In this document: piece by piece, positions 2,141-44,118 of the stretch
Position numbering within the stretch: position 1 is the stretch's first letter
Layout of the letters: each line of letters opens with the position of its first letter
Assembly: GCA_052327205.1 (NCBI GenBank)
Contig: CM126216.1
Coordinates: 59,706,001 to 59,770,000 of the forward strand
Length of the DNA: 64,000 bases
Source: Somniosus microcephalus
Lineage: Eukaryota
Direction: 5' to 3'
Notes under the pieces: generated by a model
What the model was told of the DNA's origin: nothing
The model's input: only the letters and a program-made list of their open reading frames with translations
The model's database searches: none
Translations under genes and position numbers: made by a program

Positions 2141-4941
2141 CTAATCCCATTTTCCAGCACTTGGTCCATAGCCTTGTAAGCTTTGACATTTCAAGTGCTC
2201 ATCTAAATGCTTCTTGAATGTTGTGAGGGTTCCTGCCACCACCATCCTTTCGGGCAGTGAGTTCCAGATTCCAACCACCCTCTGGGTGAAAAAGTTTTTC
2301 CTCAAATCCCATCTAAACCTCCTGCCCCTTACCTTGAAACTATGCCCCCTGGTTATTGACCCCTCTACTAAGGGGAAAAGTTCCTTTCTATCTACCCTAT
2401 CTATGCCCCTCATAATTTTGTACACCTCAATCAGGTTCCCCCCTCAGCCTTCTCTGCTCGAAGGAAAACAACCCCAGCCTGTCCAGTCTCTCTTCATAGC
2501 TGAAACGCTCCAGCCCAGGTAACATCCTGGTGAATCCCCTCTGCACCCTCTCCAATGCAATCACATCCTTCCTATAGTGTGGTGACCAGAACTGCACATA
2601 ATATTCCAGCTGTGGCCTAACTAACGTTTTGTATAGCTCCATCATAACCTCCCTGCTCTTATATTCTTTGCCTCGGCTAATGAAGGCAAGTATCCCATAT
2701 GCCTTCTTAACCACCTTATCTACCTGTCCTGCTGCCTTCAGGGATCTATGTACATGCACACCAAGATCCCTCTGATCCTTTGTCCTTCCTAGGGTCCTAC
2801 CATTCATTGTGTATTCCCTTGCCTTGTTAGTCCTCCCAAAATGCATCACCTCACACTTTTCAGGGTTAAATTCCATTTGCCACTGTTCTGCCCATCTGAC
2901 CAACCAGTCTATATCGTCCTGTAGCCTGAGGCTTCCCTCCTCACTATTTACCACTCCACCAATTTTCGTGTCATCTGCGAACTTATTGATCATACCTCCT
3001 ACATTCATATCTAAATCATTAATGTACACTACAAACAGCAAGGGACCCAGCACCGATCCCTGCAGTACACCACTGGACACAGGCTTCCAGTCACAAAAAC
3101 AACCTTCAACCATCACCTTCTACCTCCTGCCACTAAGCCAATTTTGGATCCAATGTGCCAAATTACCCTGGATCCCATGGGCTCTTATCTTGACCAGTCT
3201 CCCATGCGGGACTTTGTCAAAAGCCTTACTGAAGTCCATGTAGACTATCAACTGCACGACCCTCAGCCACACACCTAGTCACCCCCTCGAAAAATTCAAT
3301 CAAATTGGTTAGACATGATCTCCCCCTGACAAAGCCATGCTCACTATCCTTGATTAATCGTTGCCTCTTCAAGTGGAGATTAATTCTGTCCCTTGGAATT
3401 TTTTCCAATAATTTCCCTACCACTGATGTTATGCTCACTGGCCTGTAATTCCCTGGTTTATCCCTACTACCCTTCTTGAATAATAATACTACATTAGCTG
3501 TCCTCCAGTCCTCTGGCACCTCCCCTGTGGCCAGAGAGGTTCTGAAAATTTGTGTCAGAGCCCCTGCAATCTCCTCCCTTGCCTCACACAGCAGCCTGGG
3601 ATACATCTCTTCTGGACCTGGGGATTTATCCACTTTTAAGCCCACTAAAACCGCTAGTACCTCCTCCCTCTCAATGCTAATTTGTTCAAGTATATCACAA
3701 TCCCCCTGCCTGAGTTCTATGCCTACGTCGTCCTTCTCCATAGTGAAAACAGATGCAAAATATTCATTTAAAACCTCACCTACATCTTCCGGCTCTACAC
3801 ACAGATTGCCACTTTGGTCCCTAATGGGCCCTACTCTTTCCCTGGTTATCCCCTTGCCCTTAATATAGTTATAAAACACCTTGGGATTTTCCTTTATTTT
3901 GCCCGCCAGTGTTTTTCATGCCCCCTCTTCGCTCTCCTAATTTCTTTTTTAAGTTCCCCCCTGCACTTTCTATACTCCTCTAGGGCTTCCACTGTTTTTA
4001 GTCCTTTGTATCTGCCAAAAGCCTCCCTTTTTTTTCTAACCCATTCTTGTATATCCCTTGACATCCAGGGTTCCCTGGATTTGTTGGTCCCACCCTTGAC
4101 CTTTACAGGAATATGTTGGCACTGTACTCTCTCTATTTCCTTTCTGAATGACTCCCACTGTTCTGATGTGGATTTTCCTACAAGTAGCTGATCCCAATCC
4201 ACTTTGGCCTGATCCTGCCTTATCATATTGAAATCGGCCTTCCCCCAATTTAGAACCTTTATTTCCAGTCCATCTTTGTCCTTTTCCATGACTACCTTAA
4301 ATCTCACTGAATTATGGTCACTGGTCACTTGAAATTCTCTCCTACTGACACTTCTACCACTTGCCCGGCTACATTCCCTAGAATTAGGTCCAGTACTGCC
4401 CCCTCTCCTGTAGGACTTTCTACATGCTGGCTCAAAAAGCTCTCCTGGATGCACTTTAAGAATTCCGCACCCTCTAAGCCTTTCACACTTTAACTATCCC
4501 AGTTAATATCATTACCCTATTATTTCTACACTTCTCTGAGATTTGCCTACATATCTGTTCCTCTATCTTCCCCTGACTGTTTGGGGGCCTATAGTACACT
4601 CCCAGCAAAGTGCTTGCCCCCTTTTTGTTTTTAAGTTCTACCCATATGGCCTCATTAGAGGAACCTGCTAAGATATCATCCCTCCTTACTGCAGTAATTG
4701 ACTCCTTGATTAATATTGCGACACCCCCTCCTCTTTTACACCCACCTCTGTCTCGCCTGAAGATTCTATACCCCGGAATATTGAGCTGCCAGTCCTGCCC
4801 CTCCCTCAACCATGTCTCTGTGATAGCAACAATATCATACTCCCATGTGTTCATCAACACCTTCAATTCATCTGCCTTACTCGCAAGACTCCTTGCATTA
4901 AAATAAATGCCATCCAGCCTTGCCATACTCCCTTGTGCCAT
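2141..4941 (-). pseudogene. CR1 ORF2 (endonuclease-reverse transcriptase), frameshifted
   Basis: NARS..K, YDIVAITETWL, GGGVA and GVYYRPP (APE domain). PGNYRPVS, SCLTNLIEFF, QGSVLGPLLF and FADDTK (RT domain). Split across five frames or ORFs. Confidence 0.93.
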
Positions 4942-5110
4942 TACATATTTGCTCTGCCTTCCAGACTGACTTGTTTTTTCCTCTATATTTGGCTGTGCAT
5001 CACCCCCTACTATAGCTCCACTCCGTATCCCATCCCCCTGCCAAGTTAGTTTAACCCCCCCCCAACAGCATTAGCAAACCTCCCCGCAAGGATGTTGGTC
5101 CCGTTCCGGT

Positions 5111-5659
5111 TCAGGTGCAACCCATCCGACTTGTACAGGTCCCACCTTCCCCAGAAGCAGACCCAGTGATCCAGAAACTAAAGCCCTCCCTCCTGCACCA
5201 ACTCTTTAGCCACGCATTTATCTGCTCTATCCTCCTATTCCTATACTCACTAGCACATGGCACCGGGAGTAATCCAGAGATTACAACCTTTGAAGTCCTG
5301 CTTTTTAATCTGCTACCTAGCTCCCTAAATTCTTGTTGCAGGACCTCATCCCTCTTTCTACCTATGTCGTTGGTACCAACGTGAACCACAACCTTTGACT
5401 GTTCACCCTCCTCCTTCAGAATGCCCTGCAGCCGTTCAGTGACATCCTTGACCCTGGCACTAGGGAGGCAACATGCCATCCTGGAGTCACGCCTGTGGCC
5501 GCAGAAATGCCTGTCTGCACCTCTCACTATTGAGTCTCCTACCACTATTGCCCTTCCACTCTTACTCCTCCCCTCTTGTGCAGCTGAGCCACCCACAGTG
5601 CCGTGAACTTGGCTCTGGCTGCACTCCCCAGAGGAACCATCACTTTCACCGTTTTCCAA
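5111..5659 (-). pseudogene. CR1 ORF1 esterase (SGNH/GDSL-like) domain, partial
   Basis: IVVGDSIVRG, VVVHVGTNDIG and VVISGLLPVP motifs, typical of CR1 ORF1 esterase domains. Lies directly upstream of ORF2. Confidence 0.88.
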
Positions 5660-5800
5660 TACAGAAAAAACGGTTGTTGAGTGAGATGCACTCTGGGGCT
5701 TTCCTGTCTACCTGCCTGCCCCCCTTCTTCTGACTGGTGGTCTCCCATTCCCTCTCTGACTGCACTTTCTTAAGCTGCGGGGTGATCACATCTAAAAACG

Positions 5801-39165: not shown

Positions 39166-40143
39166 GATACAGAGGCCAATTGTGAAGACCAAGGATCTAA
39201 GCTAGGATTTTTCTGTTTTGTACCACGTCAAGAAGTGCACTAACATACTGAGCTATCAGGACAGCCTCAGATCAAAATATCTAAGCTTTTGCATTTTTCC
39301 CACTACCTAAGGTGAGATCCAGAACATGGCCTCCTTCAGTGGCCTTGGTCAAGATCGCTGTGTTTTGAAGGAGGGTCCAATGACTTGATTGCCGACATGA
39401 TGACATAATTATTTTGCTACTTCCAGCTGTTGCAAATTAGTTGTTTTTAATCACAGCTTTAAGTTGCATATATTACTGCAGGTGAGGCAGAGTGGAAGAA
39501 GTTTCCCTCTGCATTTGGCTGTGTTATACCTGGCCTGGGAGCTTTTGATGCTGACACTGGGTGCCTGAAACGTTTAAAGTGCAAAAATGTTCCATTCCCC
39601 AGCATTGACATAATCTGAGAGATGCATTGTAAATGTTGGTGCTGCAGCTGATATAATGGCCTAGAAATTCAGTTGCGTGCGCCAGCCGTTAGTGCCTTAA
39701 GAGGAGTAGACTTCGAGCGCTAGGCACTTAGCGGCCGGGCGCAGCGCGATCTGCGCCTATGCCCAACTTCAGTAGACATTTAGCGCCGGCGCAAAGTGTT
39801 TGCGCGCGCAGCTTATGACGTCATTTCGTCGTGCAACGCCCTTTGTGCGCCCCAAACCGGAACTTCAGTCGCGCCCACCCAATGTGGGCGTGGCGGTGCT
39901 AAGAACTGTGAAGTGGAACGCAGCAGTGGCCCTGCAGGCCTCGGGGAGCGCTAATTAAAGGGCACTTACACTGAACTATAAAGGCCAGCCATTTTGCTGC
40001 AATGACTTTTGTGCAACGGATTTCTGGACAGAGACCAAGAAAGAGACCTTACTGATTTGGCCCAACATAGGAGAGGTATTTTTGGCTTCTGGCCAGAGCT
40101 TGGAAATTTGCCTCATTGTGATTTCATTGTTTGCCAGTATATT

Positions 40144-41283
40144 ATGGGGGCTGCATGGGGTGCCAACCCTCAGTTCCAGCATTATGTGCGAAGGGCTCGC
40201 AGACGCTGTGTGAGAGGGGCAGCCATGCCTAGACGCAGAGGGGGCATCAGGCGTCGGCAACGTAGGCCTTACCCACTCAGGGAATACCGCCAGCAGGTGT
40301 CCTATCTCACCATGACTGCCGCGCAGTGTGTTAAGAGGCTGCACTTCAGAAGGGAGGTGGTTGCAGAGATCTGCCAGCTGCTTCACAGAGATCTGCGTCC
40401 ACAGCTGATGTGCAGGACGTCTCTGTCGGTGGAAGTGAAGGTCACGGTGGCTCTGAACCTTTATGCAAGCGGCTCCTTCCAAGCTGCTGCTGGGGACATA
40501 GCTAACATATCCCAGTTCGCCGTGCATCGCTGCATCCGGCAGGTCACCGATGCCCTTTTCACAAGGAGACACCAATTCATCTCCTTCCCCATGACCCTGG
40601 AGAGGCAGGAGCAGCGTGCAGTCGGATTTGCGAGGATCGCGGACTTCCCCATGGTGCAGGGCGCCATTGACTGCACGCATGTGGCTTTGCGGGCACCTAT
40701 CGACAATGCCGAGGATTACCGCAACCGGAAGGGCTACCATTCCCTCAATGTACAGCTGGTGTGTGACAACAGGCAGCGCATCCTAGCTGTCAATGCCCGC
40801 TTTCCAGGCAGCAGCCACGATGCATTTATCCTGCGCCAGACTACTGTGGCTGACATGTTCCAGGCACAGCCTCCCCCAAGAGGATGGCTTATCGGGGACA
40901 AAGGCTATCCTTTGTGTACATAGCTCATGACCCCGCTCCGCGCGCCCAGGACCCCTGCTGAGGAGGCATACAACGAAAGCCATCAAGCCACAAGGAACAT
41001 CATAGAGCAAACGATTAGCATCCTCAAGCAACGGTTCCGCTGCCTGGATCGCTCCGGCGGATCTCTGCAGTATTCGCCGGATAGAGTCTCCCAGTTCGTC
41101 GTCGTTTGCTGCATGCTGCACAACCTGGCTATCCGCAGGACTCAGGCACTGCCACCTCACGTTGGACCACCACCTCAGGAGGACGAGCAGGAGGACCATG
41201 AGGAGGAGGAGGAGTACCAGCCCAGGAGGGAGCCACAAGGTCCAAGGGCCGTCCGTCGGCGGCTTATTGAACGACACTTCTAG
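40144..41283 (+). pseudogene. Harbinger DDE transposase (HARBI1-like) with a single in-frame nonsense codon
   Basis: VALNLYASGSFQ, GAIDCTH, NRKGYHSLNVQ, FPGSSHDA, GDKGYP, YNESH..TRNIIEQ, LKQRFRCL and CCMLHN motifs. TAG at 40921-40923 replaces the conserved Trp of the W-L-M-T-P motif, and the frame continues to 41283. ATG at 40144 assumed as start. TATAAA at 39977-39982. Confidence 0.93.
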
Positions 41284-41396
41284 GCCCCCTGTTAGGGAAT
41301 GGCTTGTGGCAATGAAGGGACATGAATGCAGCCGCTCCGCAAGCCCTCAGCCGGTTAACGCAACAACCACTTCAAACATCAAACATGGACAAGCTG

Positions 41397-41416
41397 AATA
41401 AAGAAAAAGCTTTATT
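41397..41416. terminator. Back-to-back polyadenylation signals of the two convergent transposon genes
   Basis: AATAAA on + (41397-41402) and TTTATT, i.e. AATAAA on - (41411-41416), between the two stop codons. Confidence 0.7.
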
Positions 41417-41621
41417 GAACAAACTCAGGGCCCTTCCCACATGAAACCCAAAAACAGACAACACCCCCAAAAAACAGTCAAACACATGACTCACTCCCAC
41501 AACCTGGGGAGGAATAACAAAACTTTTCCATCCAAATGGTCTTCATCCTCGGCCTTACTAAAACAATCCCCCCATAGACAATACAACCACCCCCATATAA
41601 AAAAACATTTGGCAACACCCT

Positions 41622-43676
41622 CTACTTTGTGTGCCGAGAGGGCGAGTCCTGGTCCAGCCTTTTCCGGCCCCTGGCCGACCTGCTGCTCCGCCTCAACCTG
41701 GGCCCTGTGGGTGCTGCAAGGCTGGGGGAAGGCTCCTGAGGGGCACATGGCGTGACGGCAGATGCCCTTGGGGGTCGGCCTAGACGAGCTCTGGCCCTCG
41801 AGGGGCCGGCTGCTGACTGCTGCAGCTGTGGCTGGGCAGCATCAGTCTCTCCAGCAGCTCGTGGCAGCTTCACTGGGGGAGTGGCAGTGGCGGCTGCAGC
41901 AATGGGGGCAAGCTGGCTGATGCCAGGCGCTCGCTGCTCGCCTGAGACACTGGCTCTCGGCCGGGCTGGCACTGCAGCAAGCGCAGCAATCTGCTGAAGG
42001 CCAGACCGCTGTGCTGCTGCAGCGCGGCGGGTGCCCTGGCGATGCCTGGCTGACACAGCGAGTGTGGCAGCAGTGAGTGCCCGTACTGCCCTGGTCTGTG
42101 CCCGCATCAGACCAGCCAGTGACTGCACGGCACCACTGATCAACTGGCCACTCGCTGCCTGTGCTGCCCTGAAGTCGTCCCGACTCGCGTCCTGTGCTGC
42201 CCTGAATTCGGCCCGACTCGCGTCCTGTGCTGCCCCGAATTCAGCCCGACTCGCGTCCTGTGCTGCCCCGAATTGTTCGAAACCCCTGGCCTGTGCTGCC
42301 CCGAGTTGCTCGAAACCCCTGGCCTGTGAGGCCCCGAAATCGGACATACTATGAGCCAGGGACTCGATGGCCTCAGGCAACCGTGCCACAACCCCCATGA
42401 ACTCGGTGTGCCGGCGATCCGAGTCCGCGGACATTTGATCGAGGAGGCGCACCTCCTGGGCGAGGACCGTCTCCGGACTGGAGGCCAGACTCTCTCTCTG
42501 GGGAGAAGGCTGCCGAGCTGCCCGACCCTTCCCGCGTGGCTGGACGCCACTGGGCCCAGCAACTACACTCCCCTGCAACACTTCCCCCCTCTGGGGAGAA
42601 GGCCGCCGAGCTGCCCGACCCTTCCCGCGTGGCTGGATGCCACTGGGCACAGGAGCTACACCCCCCTGCAACACTTCCCCCTGGCTCTCCTCCAGGGAAG
42701 ACGTGTCCCCTCCATTGCCATCCCCTGGCGCGGATGTGGGTTCCCCCGATGGGCCGCCTTCCTCTTGCTCCTCCTCGTCCTCCTCTTCCGAGGGACTGTC
42801 ACTGGCAGCTTCAGGGACCTCCTCCTCACCAGCTGAAAGCAGGAAGGCACAAGAGTAGCTTTAGAGTGAGGACGGGGCGTCAGCGAGGGAGGCATGAGTG
42901 GTGGCATTCAGCGCATTGGTTGGACAGTGGCAAAGGATGTAGATCTGAAGCGCAAGGGGAACGAGAGAGGTCCAAAAGGTGATGTCCTTACCATTGGGGC
43001 CCAGCACAGGGTCGGCATCTCCACATGCAACGGGGCCAATCAGCCGGCCACCCATGAGTCGACCCACGTGCTCCTCCAGGTCACTGAGCTGCTGGAACTG
43101 GGGACGGCCTCCCCCGGTGTCAGTCCGGCTCCTCATATTCTGGGCCAGCTTGGCCTGCAAGAGAAAGGACGGCCTCTAAGTACAGTGTGGTGCCCTGTTG
43201 TTGTGTGCACTGCCTCCCATGGTCGAATAGCTTGGCCAGTGTGGTGCCCTGTTGTTGTATGCACTGCCTCCCATGGTGGAATAGCTTGGCCAGTGTGTAA
43301 AGTGCAGAAAGTGCAATTGATGTTCATGCCAGTGCCATAGCTGCTGGATGAGGGCTGGCCATTAGGGCTTTGAGGTCCCTTTGCCCATAATGTGAGGTGC
43401 ACATGCAAGGATGAGGAGGACACTGGAAAGGGTACTCACCCTGACAATCCGAGTGAGGTCGTTAAACTTTTTCCGGCATTGGACACCAGTCCTGGGGACA
43501 TCGCAGGTGGCTGTGACCCTCTGGGCGATATCCCTCCAGGCTCTCCTGTACACCCTGGTGGCAGGCTTCTTGCCACTGTCCGGGAACAAGATATGGCGTC
43601 TCCTCTCCAAAGCCCTAACCAGCACCTTTAAATCATGGGCAGAGAAGCGCTGCGCTTGCTCACGGGCCCTCTGCAT
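41622..43676 (-). CDS. Harbinger Myb/SANT-like (trihelix) DNA-binding partner protein; 3 exons: 43676-43440, 43154-42992, 42832-41622; 536 aa
   Basis: Exon 1 encodes RFSAHDLKVLV...AWRDIAQRV...RTGVQCRKKFNDL. Splice sites AGG|GTGAGT, TTGCAG|GCC, ATG|GTAAGG and TTTCAG|CT have compatible phases. The exons total 1611 nt in one open frame that joins ORF 41622..42674. Confidence 0.88.
43183..43297. repeat. 54-bp tandem duplication in intron 1 of the Myb-like gene
   Basis: CAGTGTG recurs at 43183, 43237 and 43291, with two near-identical units. Confidence 0.9.
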
Positions 43677-44118
43677 CCTTCCTGGCGCTATTTCTCTCCA
43701 GCAGCAGTGTTTAGGCCTAGCTGGAGGGCTGCAGTATCCAGGGCGTGGCAGCAGACCAAGTCGACCCTTCCCCCTTTAAGAGCTGGCCGGCGCCAGGGTG
43801 TCTGCTGTCAATCAAGAAATGACCGCACCTGCGCTGCGCCCGGCCTCGGCGGTATCACTCTGCACCGCCGGCTTAGCGCCTAAAGATAGCCGTGCATCGC
43901 CAGTTTTAGCGCTCGAGCAAACTCCTTGGTCAAAGCTACTGAATATCGGCGAAGTGGCCTCCACTTTGCGCCGGGCGCAAACTTTAGCGGCCGCCCGACT
44001 TTACCACCCCAAAAGTGGCTATACTGAATTTCTAGGCCAATGTCTGCTACAGCTCAGACTTTCCCTGCTGACCAAGAGGATTCAGACCGGTCTCCAAGTG
44101 TACATGTTGCAAGACCTG

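Follow-up and report, generated by a model that had tools for sequence, protein, structure and literature searches.

The window analysed here is a 64,000-nucleotide stretch of the Somniosus microcephalus genome (GenBank assembly GCA_052327205.1, contig CM126216.1, positions 59,706,001 to 59,770,000), and all coordinates below are those of the whole stretch. It contains a PIF/Harbinger transposon of 4,381 bp at 39658-44038, hereafter the window copy, which is bounded by AAT duplications. Very probably, this is a full-length two-gene Harbinger copy with a transposase disrupted by a stop codon, and it belongs with thousands of related copies that spread likely millions of years ago and have since been decaying unselected. 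This reading was built on direct observation of the ends, the duplication, both genes, the lesions private to the copy, the copy counts, the subfamily structure and the target preference. The window copy is real but ordinary, and the notable points are the target and intron patterns found at the level of its family.

The window copy and its lesions

The sequence-only reading had reported perfect 16-bp terminal inverted repeats (TIRs), an exact AAT duplication, abundant CpG and a two-gene PIF/Harbinger organization, and our analysis confirmed each of these. The repeats and duplications occupy 39655-39673 and 44023-44041 (Table 1), and the TIR starts with GGC. The observed/expected ratio of CpG was 0.60 over the element and reached 1.12 and 0.89 in its two ends, whereas the two flanks had 0.41 and 0.33. 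Words such as GCGCAAA and GCGCTAA occur about twice each per end and nowhere in the interior; by analogy with related systems, the Myb protein is predicted to bind them. Read with X at the stop, the transposase matched Pfam DDE_Tnp_4 (E = 2.8e-38), and the partner protein matched Myb_DNA-bind_5 (E = 3.4e-12). With DDE_Tnp_4, a separate Myb/SANT-like gene, short TIRs and a 3-bp duplication, the element belongs to the PIF/Harbinger superfamily in the broad sense.

The partner gene lies on the - strand. Its 536-aa frame is open over three exons separated by GT-AG introns, which agrees with the earlier claim of a fully open spliced partner gene, although the splicing itself is predicted from the gene model. 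The splice sites are identical across six subfamily majorities. None of the 15 joints examined (among 18) in two RNA runs matched the predicted partner introns. The copy number of the 33-bp and 93-bp tandem units in exon 3 differs among copies. Within this exon (41640-42110), the ratio of nonsynonymous to synonymous rates (dN/dS) between subfamily majorities was 1.6-2.0 in three of four comparisons and 0.93 in the fourth, with small and non-independent counts. The 5′ leader of the transposase may also contain an intron (40077-40137), whose donor is kept in six subfamily majorities and whose acceptor is altered in two.

The catalytic triad of the transposase, which we take to be D176, D252 and E288 from established knowledge of Harbinger transposases, is present in full in the window copy. 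As had been noticed before, a TAG at 40921-40923 (codon 260) stands at a conserved Trp codon; 106 of 115 aligned homologs have Trp at this position. The encoded transposase would end before Glu288. However, the TAG is not the only visible lesion, as the earlier account had it. F106L (40459) lies at a position that is Phe in 92 of 110 homologs, and its base is common to 0 of 52 siblings. G292S (41017), four residues past the catalytic Glu288, lies at a position that is Gly in 86 of 116 homologs, and its base is common to 1 of 52 siblings. A 14-bp deletion at the left end removes one arm of a palindrome that is retained in the other subfamilies shown, and 20 near-private substitutions were counted over 3,762 sites. 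An autonomous element keeps both frames open and its conserved residues intact; the window copy carries the stop at codon 260, F106L and G292S.

The first interpretation of this copy was that it is otherwise functional and that the stop codon alone blocks its autonomy. The perfect TIRs and duplication, the open partner with intact splice sites and the retained triad all agree with this. However, the two replacements at well-kept positions, the 14 bp gone from a conserved end palindrome and the near-private substitutions argue against it. We consider it unlikely, and the proposed distance of a single base from autonomy found no support.

Copy number, decay and activity of the family

The genome searched has 2,112 contigs that total 6.45 Gb. 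In it, the terminal 24-mers were found as exact matches 888 times for the left end and 9,530 times for the right end (controls, 0). The family is multi-copy and of low divergence, as had been proposed. We took left-end loci in position order on contig C1 and found that 54 of 60 were elements of 4-5 kb; the other six were not of this length and were left out of the integrity counts. Among 60 right-end loci, 30 were 4-5.5 kb long, 19 were shorter than 2 kb, one was 3.5 kb and 10 had no left TIR in range; this sample skipped loci recognised from other lists and is biased against the subfamily of the window copy. By extrapolation, the genome would hold ~4,800 full-length and ~3,000 short copies, or at least ~0.4% of its sequence. 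The copies fall into many subfamilies with 81-98% identity to the window copy. The short copies include non-autonomous subfamilies of ~1.37 kb and of 0.72-0.91 kb with the same TIRs, the best pair being 98.1% identical (L032, L034, L038, L044, L050, L158, L175, L182; L045, L047, L159, L160, L176, L184, L189, L190).

The transposase frame was open in 25 of 54 full-length siblings. Both frames were open in 14 (with motif filters) to 17 (by frame alone) of the 54, and in 5 of 13 copies in a second sample; loci L053, L056, L068, L135 and L141 are examples of naturally open copies. Extrapolated to all copies with the exact left 24-mer (888 × 54/60 × 14-17/54), this gives ~200-250 copies with both frames open. 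The element is not the rare near-autonomous one that had been supposed; out of thousands of copies, the window copy ranks with the more heavily damaged.

Codon 260 was TGG in 18 of 18 siblings in one set and in 53 of 54 in another. Genome-wide, a 30-mer at this codon had 1,567 occurrences in its TGG form and 5 in its TAG form. The existence of TGG copies had been put forward as a check, and they do exist, many with both frames open. Because such copies abound and naturally open copies exist, the family can be studied without any repair. Of the 27 other rare changes of the window copy, the four further TAG copies have only 0-2, and they resemble it no more closely than ordinary siblings do. Thus, the TAG arose repeatedly and independently. 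The window copy left no detected descendants.

We compared 119 copies in 7,021 pairs, including the 20 nearest copies, which came from the highest-ranking hits when the whole genome was searched with an open transposase. The best independent pair was 99.2% identical, which speaks against a recent burst. The best pairs reached 98.3% among 31 other full-length copies and 98.1% among 18 short copies. Two copies on contig C1 (L144 and L145, 67.6 and 68.8 Mb) were 99.8% identical; because their flanks are also identical, they represent a segmental duplication and not a new jump.

Private changes in single copies showed a nonsynonymous to synonymous ratio (pN/pS) of 0.75 in the transposase and 0.84-0.85 in the partner, and 12 stops were found among 52 copies. 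Between subfamilies, dN/dS of the transposase was 0.32-0.37. This difference indicates that selection acted during lineage transposition and not on inserted copies. Private divergence was ~0.5%. The pedigree rate of the epaulette shark is 7e-10 per generation (CI 1.4-14.1e-10; PMC10587355; this and the other papers given by PMC number are cited for the portions of their text at hand). As a rough estimate, the copies would be ~7 million generations old (3.5-36 million), and "young" would mean millions of years for this family. The family sequence occurs under three organism labels, which, provided that the labels denote different species, fits a spread that predates their separation. An empty site was sought in other organisms; the left flank had no coverage in run X4, and none of the listed joints spanned the element.

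RNA was represented by two raw runs (X7 and X8), whose species label is shared with one source of the family sequence. The family DNA is transcribed.

Several points weigh against the reading of a damaged copy in a decaying family. The harm done by F106L, G292S and the 14-bp deletion is predicted from conservation. Working copies are possible, since both open frames and all 122 conserved transposase positions were kept in 3 of 54 and 2 of 13 copies. The age uses a rate borrowed from another shark species. Family reads at ≥93% identity numbered 6,751 and 9,016 in the two RNA runs, on both strands and with introns covered as deeply as exons. Finally, the sampling could have overlooked a small subfamily that is active at present; the sampled copies come mostly from one chromosome and make up <2% of the clan.

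The family might still be transposing from a few unsampled master copies. The extrapolated copies with both frames open are compatible with this, as are the RNA reads on both genes. Along part of the transposase, one strand predominates among these reads, as would be expected from sense transcription, provided that the library was made by the common stranded protocol. However, no independent pair exceeds 99.2%, even among the 20 nearest copies from the genome-wide search, and the best pairs in the two other sets are lower. Moreover, the equal coverage of introns and exons in both directions, with no listed joint fitting the introns, points to passive read-through of host transcripts. Continued transposition is thus rather improbable in our judgement. 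The earlier suggestion of a young family with perhaps active copies was right about the low divergence, but the identity ceiling and the near-neutral decay gave no positive evidence of activity.

Alternatively, the TAG might stem from faulty sequencing or assembly, and the window copy would really be open. G was read at 40922 in 621 of 621 covering X7 reads and in 449 of 460 X8 reads, although these are reads of the family and not of the locus. However, 11 of the 460 X8 reads were non-G, the identical change occurs in four other copies, and with 12 private stops across 52 siblings one more is expected. An error is therefore very improbable. A domesticated host gene pair like HARBI1/NAIF1, to which the database label "putative nuclease HARBI1" of the homologs might point, can practically be dismissed, because such genes are orthologous and single-locus (PMC9392472), single-copy, without TIRs and under purifying selection at the locus, whereas this sequence has TIRs, a duplication, a stop, thousands of copies and neutral decay.

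Target sites and relation to known Harbingers

Exact 3-bp duplications were found in 98 of 122 distinct insertions. Their flanks form the target palindrome ARRNAY-NNN-RTNYYT, with a flanking C/G preference of 64%. The duplicated triplet itself is loose and AT-rich: 21 strand-folded triplets occurred, with WWW in 51, ANT in 21, TNA in 11, TWA in 7 and CWG in 0 of the 98 sites.

Six of the 98 sites (L011, L039, L051, L069, L127 and L130) lie within CATAGA-type short tandem arrays, compared with 0.09% of random sites. These arrays resemble the target palindrome; they are presumably tails of long interspersed nuclear elements (LINEs).

In 11 of the 122 insertions, the two duplications differ by two or three mismatches (<1 expected by mutation), yet good target flanks exist on both sides. 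One of them, L084 (contig C1, ~207.47 Mb), has a subfamily B left part and an A-type lineage right part, with the switch inside the transposase and wholly mismatched duplications (AAT/GTA); it is likely a crossover product of two copies. The other ten (L064, L077, L087, L088, L097, L108, L112, L113, L125 and L128) show no detectable mosaicism. They may have come from crossover between near-identical copies or from adjacent deletions made by the transposase. Ectopic crossover as a general cause was rejected, as mosaicism was seen in only 1 of the 11 and was not enriched (p = 0.76).

The zebrafish element Harbinger3_DR (NuwaI-2_DRer in Table S5 of PMC4482050) is similar in its length of ~4.2-4.4 kb, short TIRs, DDE_Tnp_4 and Myb_DNA-bind_5 domains and 3-bp duplication. 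Its target (PMC3016246) is also matched by the six bases on each side of the shark insertions: the mean score was 7.3 of 12, compared with 3.5 for random sites, and 47 of 98 family sites scored at least 8 of 12, compared with 0.7% of random sites. However, its triplet, like that of NuwaI, is CWG, which was absent from the 98 shark sites. Its partner has 221 aa and it has 293 copies, whereas the shark family, known here from sequence, has a partner of 536 aa and thousands of copies, some with naturally open frames.

The family was also compared with the groups in PMC4482050. NuwaI, to which Harbinger3_DR belongs, combines DDE_Tnp_4 with Myb_DNA-bind_5 at ~4.4 kb, as here, and has a TIR starting with GG(G), where ours starts with GGC. 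NuwaII uses C|TNA|G and shares the flanking C/G preference, while TNA made up only 11 of our 98 triplets. Pangu has an ANT duplication and a second open reading frame (ORF) without a known domain, whereas ANT was found in 21 of 98 here and the second protein has a Myb domain. The narrow PIF/Harbinger group duplicates TWA (7 of 98 here). Because the duplications did not agree with any of these groups, we did not file the family under NuwaI, NuwaII, Pangu or narrow PIF/Harbinger. A target like that of Harbinger3_DR with a non-specific core, outside all duplication-defined groups of Han et al., would interest specialists.

Among named homologs of an open sibling transposase, shark and ray proteins ranked best, with 45-67% identity (best 120 of 7,983 candidates scored), which points to a likely elasmobranch host. 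Chondrichthyan proteins named "putative nuclease HARBI1", the best from Pristiophorus japonicus (67%), share the transposase family and its motifs. These names are automatic annotations and not curated transposon families, and no near-identical protein was among the 120 matches listed. No solved structure was matched by sequence.

In Harbinger3_DR and Ping/Pong, both proteins are required for transposition, and the Myb protein binds both the element ends and the transposase (PMC2836001). By analogy with these systems (PMC2836001, PMC9179366), the Myb protein of the shark family would bind the repeated subterminal words and bring the DDE transposase into the nucleus and onto the element ends. 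The element would then be excised and pasted into a palindromic site, whose central three bases would be duplicated. The window copy could at most be mobilised in trans or serve as a source of partner protein, and the short copies of 0.7-1.4 kb with the same ends would be mobilised likewise. Dozens of "potentially active" Harbinger families with two intact ORFs are described in PMC4482050. The natural open copies of the shark family suit a two-component transposition assay without consensus building.

Harbingers were reported absent from elephant shark, with other cartilaginous fish left to test (PMC9179366). The family settles this question for the present genome, and the grey reef shark was already positive: Tourist/Harbinger repeats are the commonest DNA transposons there, where DNA transposons make up 1.58% of the genome (PMC12498223), and the cited text gives no account of individual families. 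The extrapolated share of the shark clan is above the 0.002-0.14% of teleosts (PMC9179366). It is below the high-copy, two-gene, transcribed expansions of coelacanth (~1-4% of the genome) and of the newt Pleurodeles waltl (PMC5741667).

Partner introns and the rest of the window

We found that between subfamilies the partner introns (42833-43439) diverge 2-5 times less than the partner exons and untranslated regions (UTRs), as judged from sibling loci L031-L190. Parsimony steps per site between subfamily majorities were 0.17 and 0.24 in the introns, with the tandem unit of intron 1 (0.32) excluded. The corresponding values were 0.79 and 0.72 in exons 1 and 2, 0.79 in the 3′ UTRs, 0.40 at transposase third positions and 0.41-0.48 in the subterminal regions. 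With the TIRs and the catalytic core set aside, no part of the element changes more slowly than these introns. The boundaries of the slow regions lie near the predicted splice sites, which gives independent support for the partner gene model.

The pattern also held at non-CpG fourfold sites in six of seven comparisons with subfamily A (Fisher's test, p = 0.007 to 5e-10; the comparisons are non-independent), the exception being the closest subfamily, A2. In 41 copies mostly of other subfamilies, intron divergence was lower than exon divergence in all 726 of 726 pairs with exon divergence >5%, although the pairs share ancestry. Private mutation rates were uniform over regions (0.46-0.62%). Measured against the subterminal regions and third positions, the introns seem to be under about twofold constraint, and exons 1-2 and the UTRs seem to have sped up about twofold.

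Three explanations were ranked, with some weight left for others. The first, which we hold tentatively and at somewhat less than even odds, is that the introns are under functional constraint because the partner's splicing or expression depends on them, combined with relaxed or co-adapting Myb exons. The second, repeated gene conversion through the introns, is possible but doubtful. The third, escape from small RNAs in the parts present in the mRNA, seems unlikely. In its fuller form, the succession of subfamilies would be an arms race with small-RNA silencing by the host: the leader, exons 1-2 including their synonymous sites and the 3′ UTRs would change to evade piRNA-type guides, and the introns, invisible to the guides, would lag. 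We give this form a slim chance. If it were true, hundreds of open copies would permit a direct escape test in the first native, unreconstructed vertebrate Harbinger system, one with a relaxed target triplet.

Several further causes were rejected. No frame is open in the introns of all lineages. No stable RNA fold was found in the introns (z = -0.2 and +1.6), and no known RNA family scored above the Rfam threshold. A CpG effect was excluded. A single recent swap of the introns does not fit, since exon 2, between the introns, diverged like exon 1 and intron divergence rises with depth from 3% to 14%.

Over the whole element, ~70-75% of non-CpG differences between lineages were transversions and 23-29% were C-G swaps; the values for private mutations were 44% and 13%. 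Introns slower than exons and UTRs in many lineages would be of specialist interest. Our literature search, narrower for the intron question than for the family, found neither this family nor the slow-intron pattern described, and the family may already stand in Repbase, Dfam or the supplements of shark genome papers.

Table 1. Positions of the features of the window copy (CDS, coding sequence).
Feature	Position	Strand	Remark
Left target-site duplication, AAT	39655..39657		exact match with right AAT
Left TIR, 16 bp	39658..39673	+	perfect against right TIR
Left subterminal region, CpG-rich, repeated GCGC(A/T)AA-type words	39674..39960	+	14 bp missing between 39800 and 39801
Transposase CDS, 379 codons and end stop	40144..41283	+	DDE_Tnp_4 match
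Convergent AATAAA, predicted poly(A) signals of both genes	41397..41416		41397-41402 (+), 41411-41416 (-); from sequence reading
Partner exon 3 and stop, low-complexity tail	41622..42832	-	33-bp and 93-bp tandem units
Partner intron 2, 159 nt, GT-AG	42833..42991	-	slow-evolving between subfamilies
Partner exon 2, 163 nt	42992..43154	-	gene model
Partner intron 1, 285 nt, GT-AG, 54-bp tandem unit inside	43155..43439	-	slow-evolving between subfamilies
Partner exon 1, Myb/SANT domain	43440..43676	-	Myb_DNA-bind_5 match
Right subterminal region, CpG-rich, repeated words as in left end	43800..44022	-	about two of each word per end
Right TIR, 16 bp	44023..44038	-	perfect against left TIR
Right target-site duplication, AAT	44039..44041		exact match with left AAT

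Outside the element, Pfam identified no host gene among the 40 ORFs of at least 105 aa in the window, a length at which short exons would escape, and only LINE remains were recognised. They belong to a decayed LINE on the - strand (2430-5707), with an esterase-type ORF1 (Lipase_GDSL_2) and pieces of an endonuclease and a reverse transcriptase.

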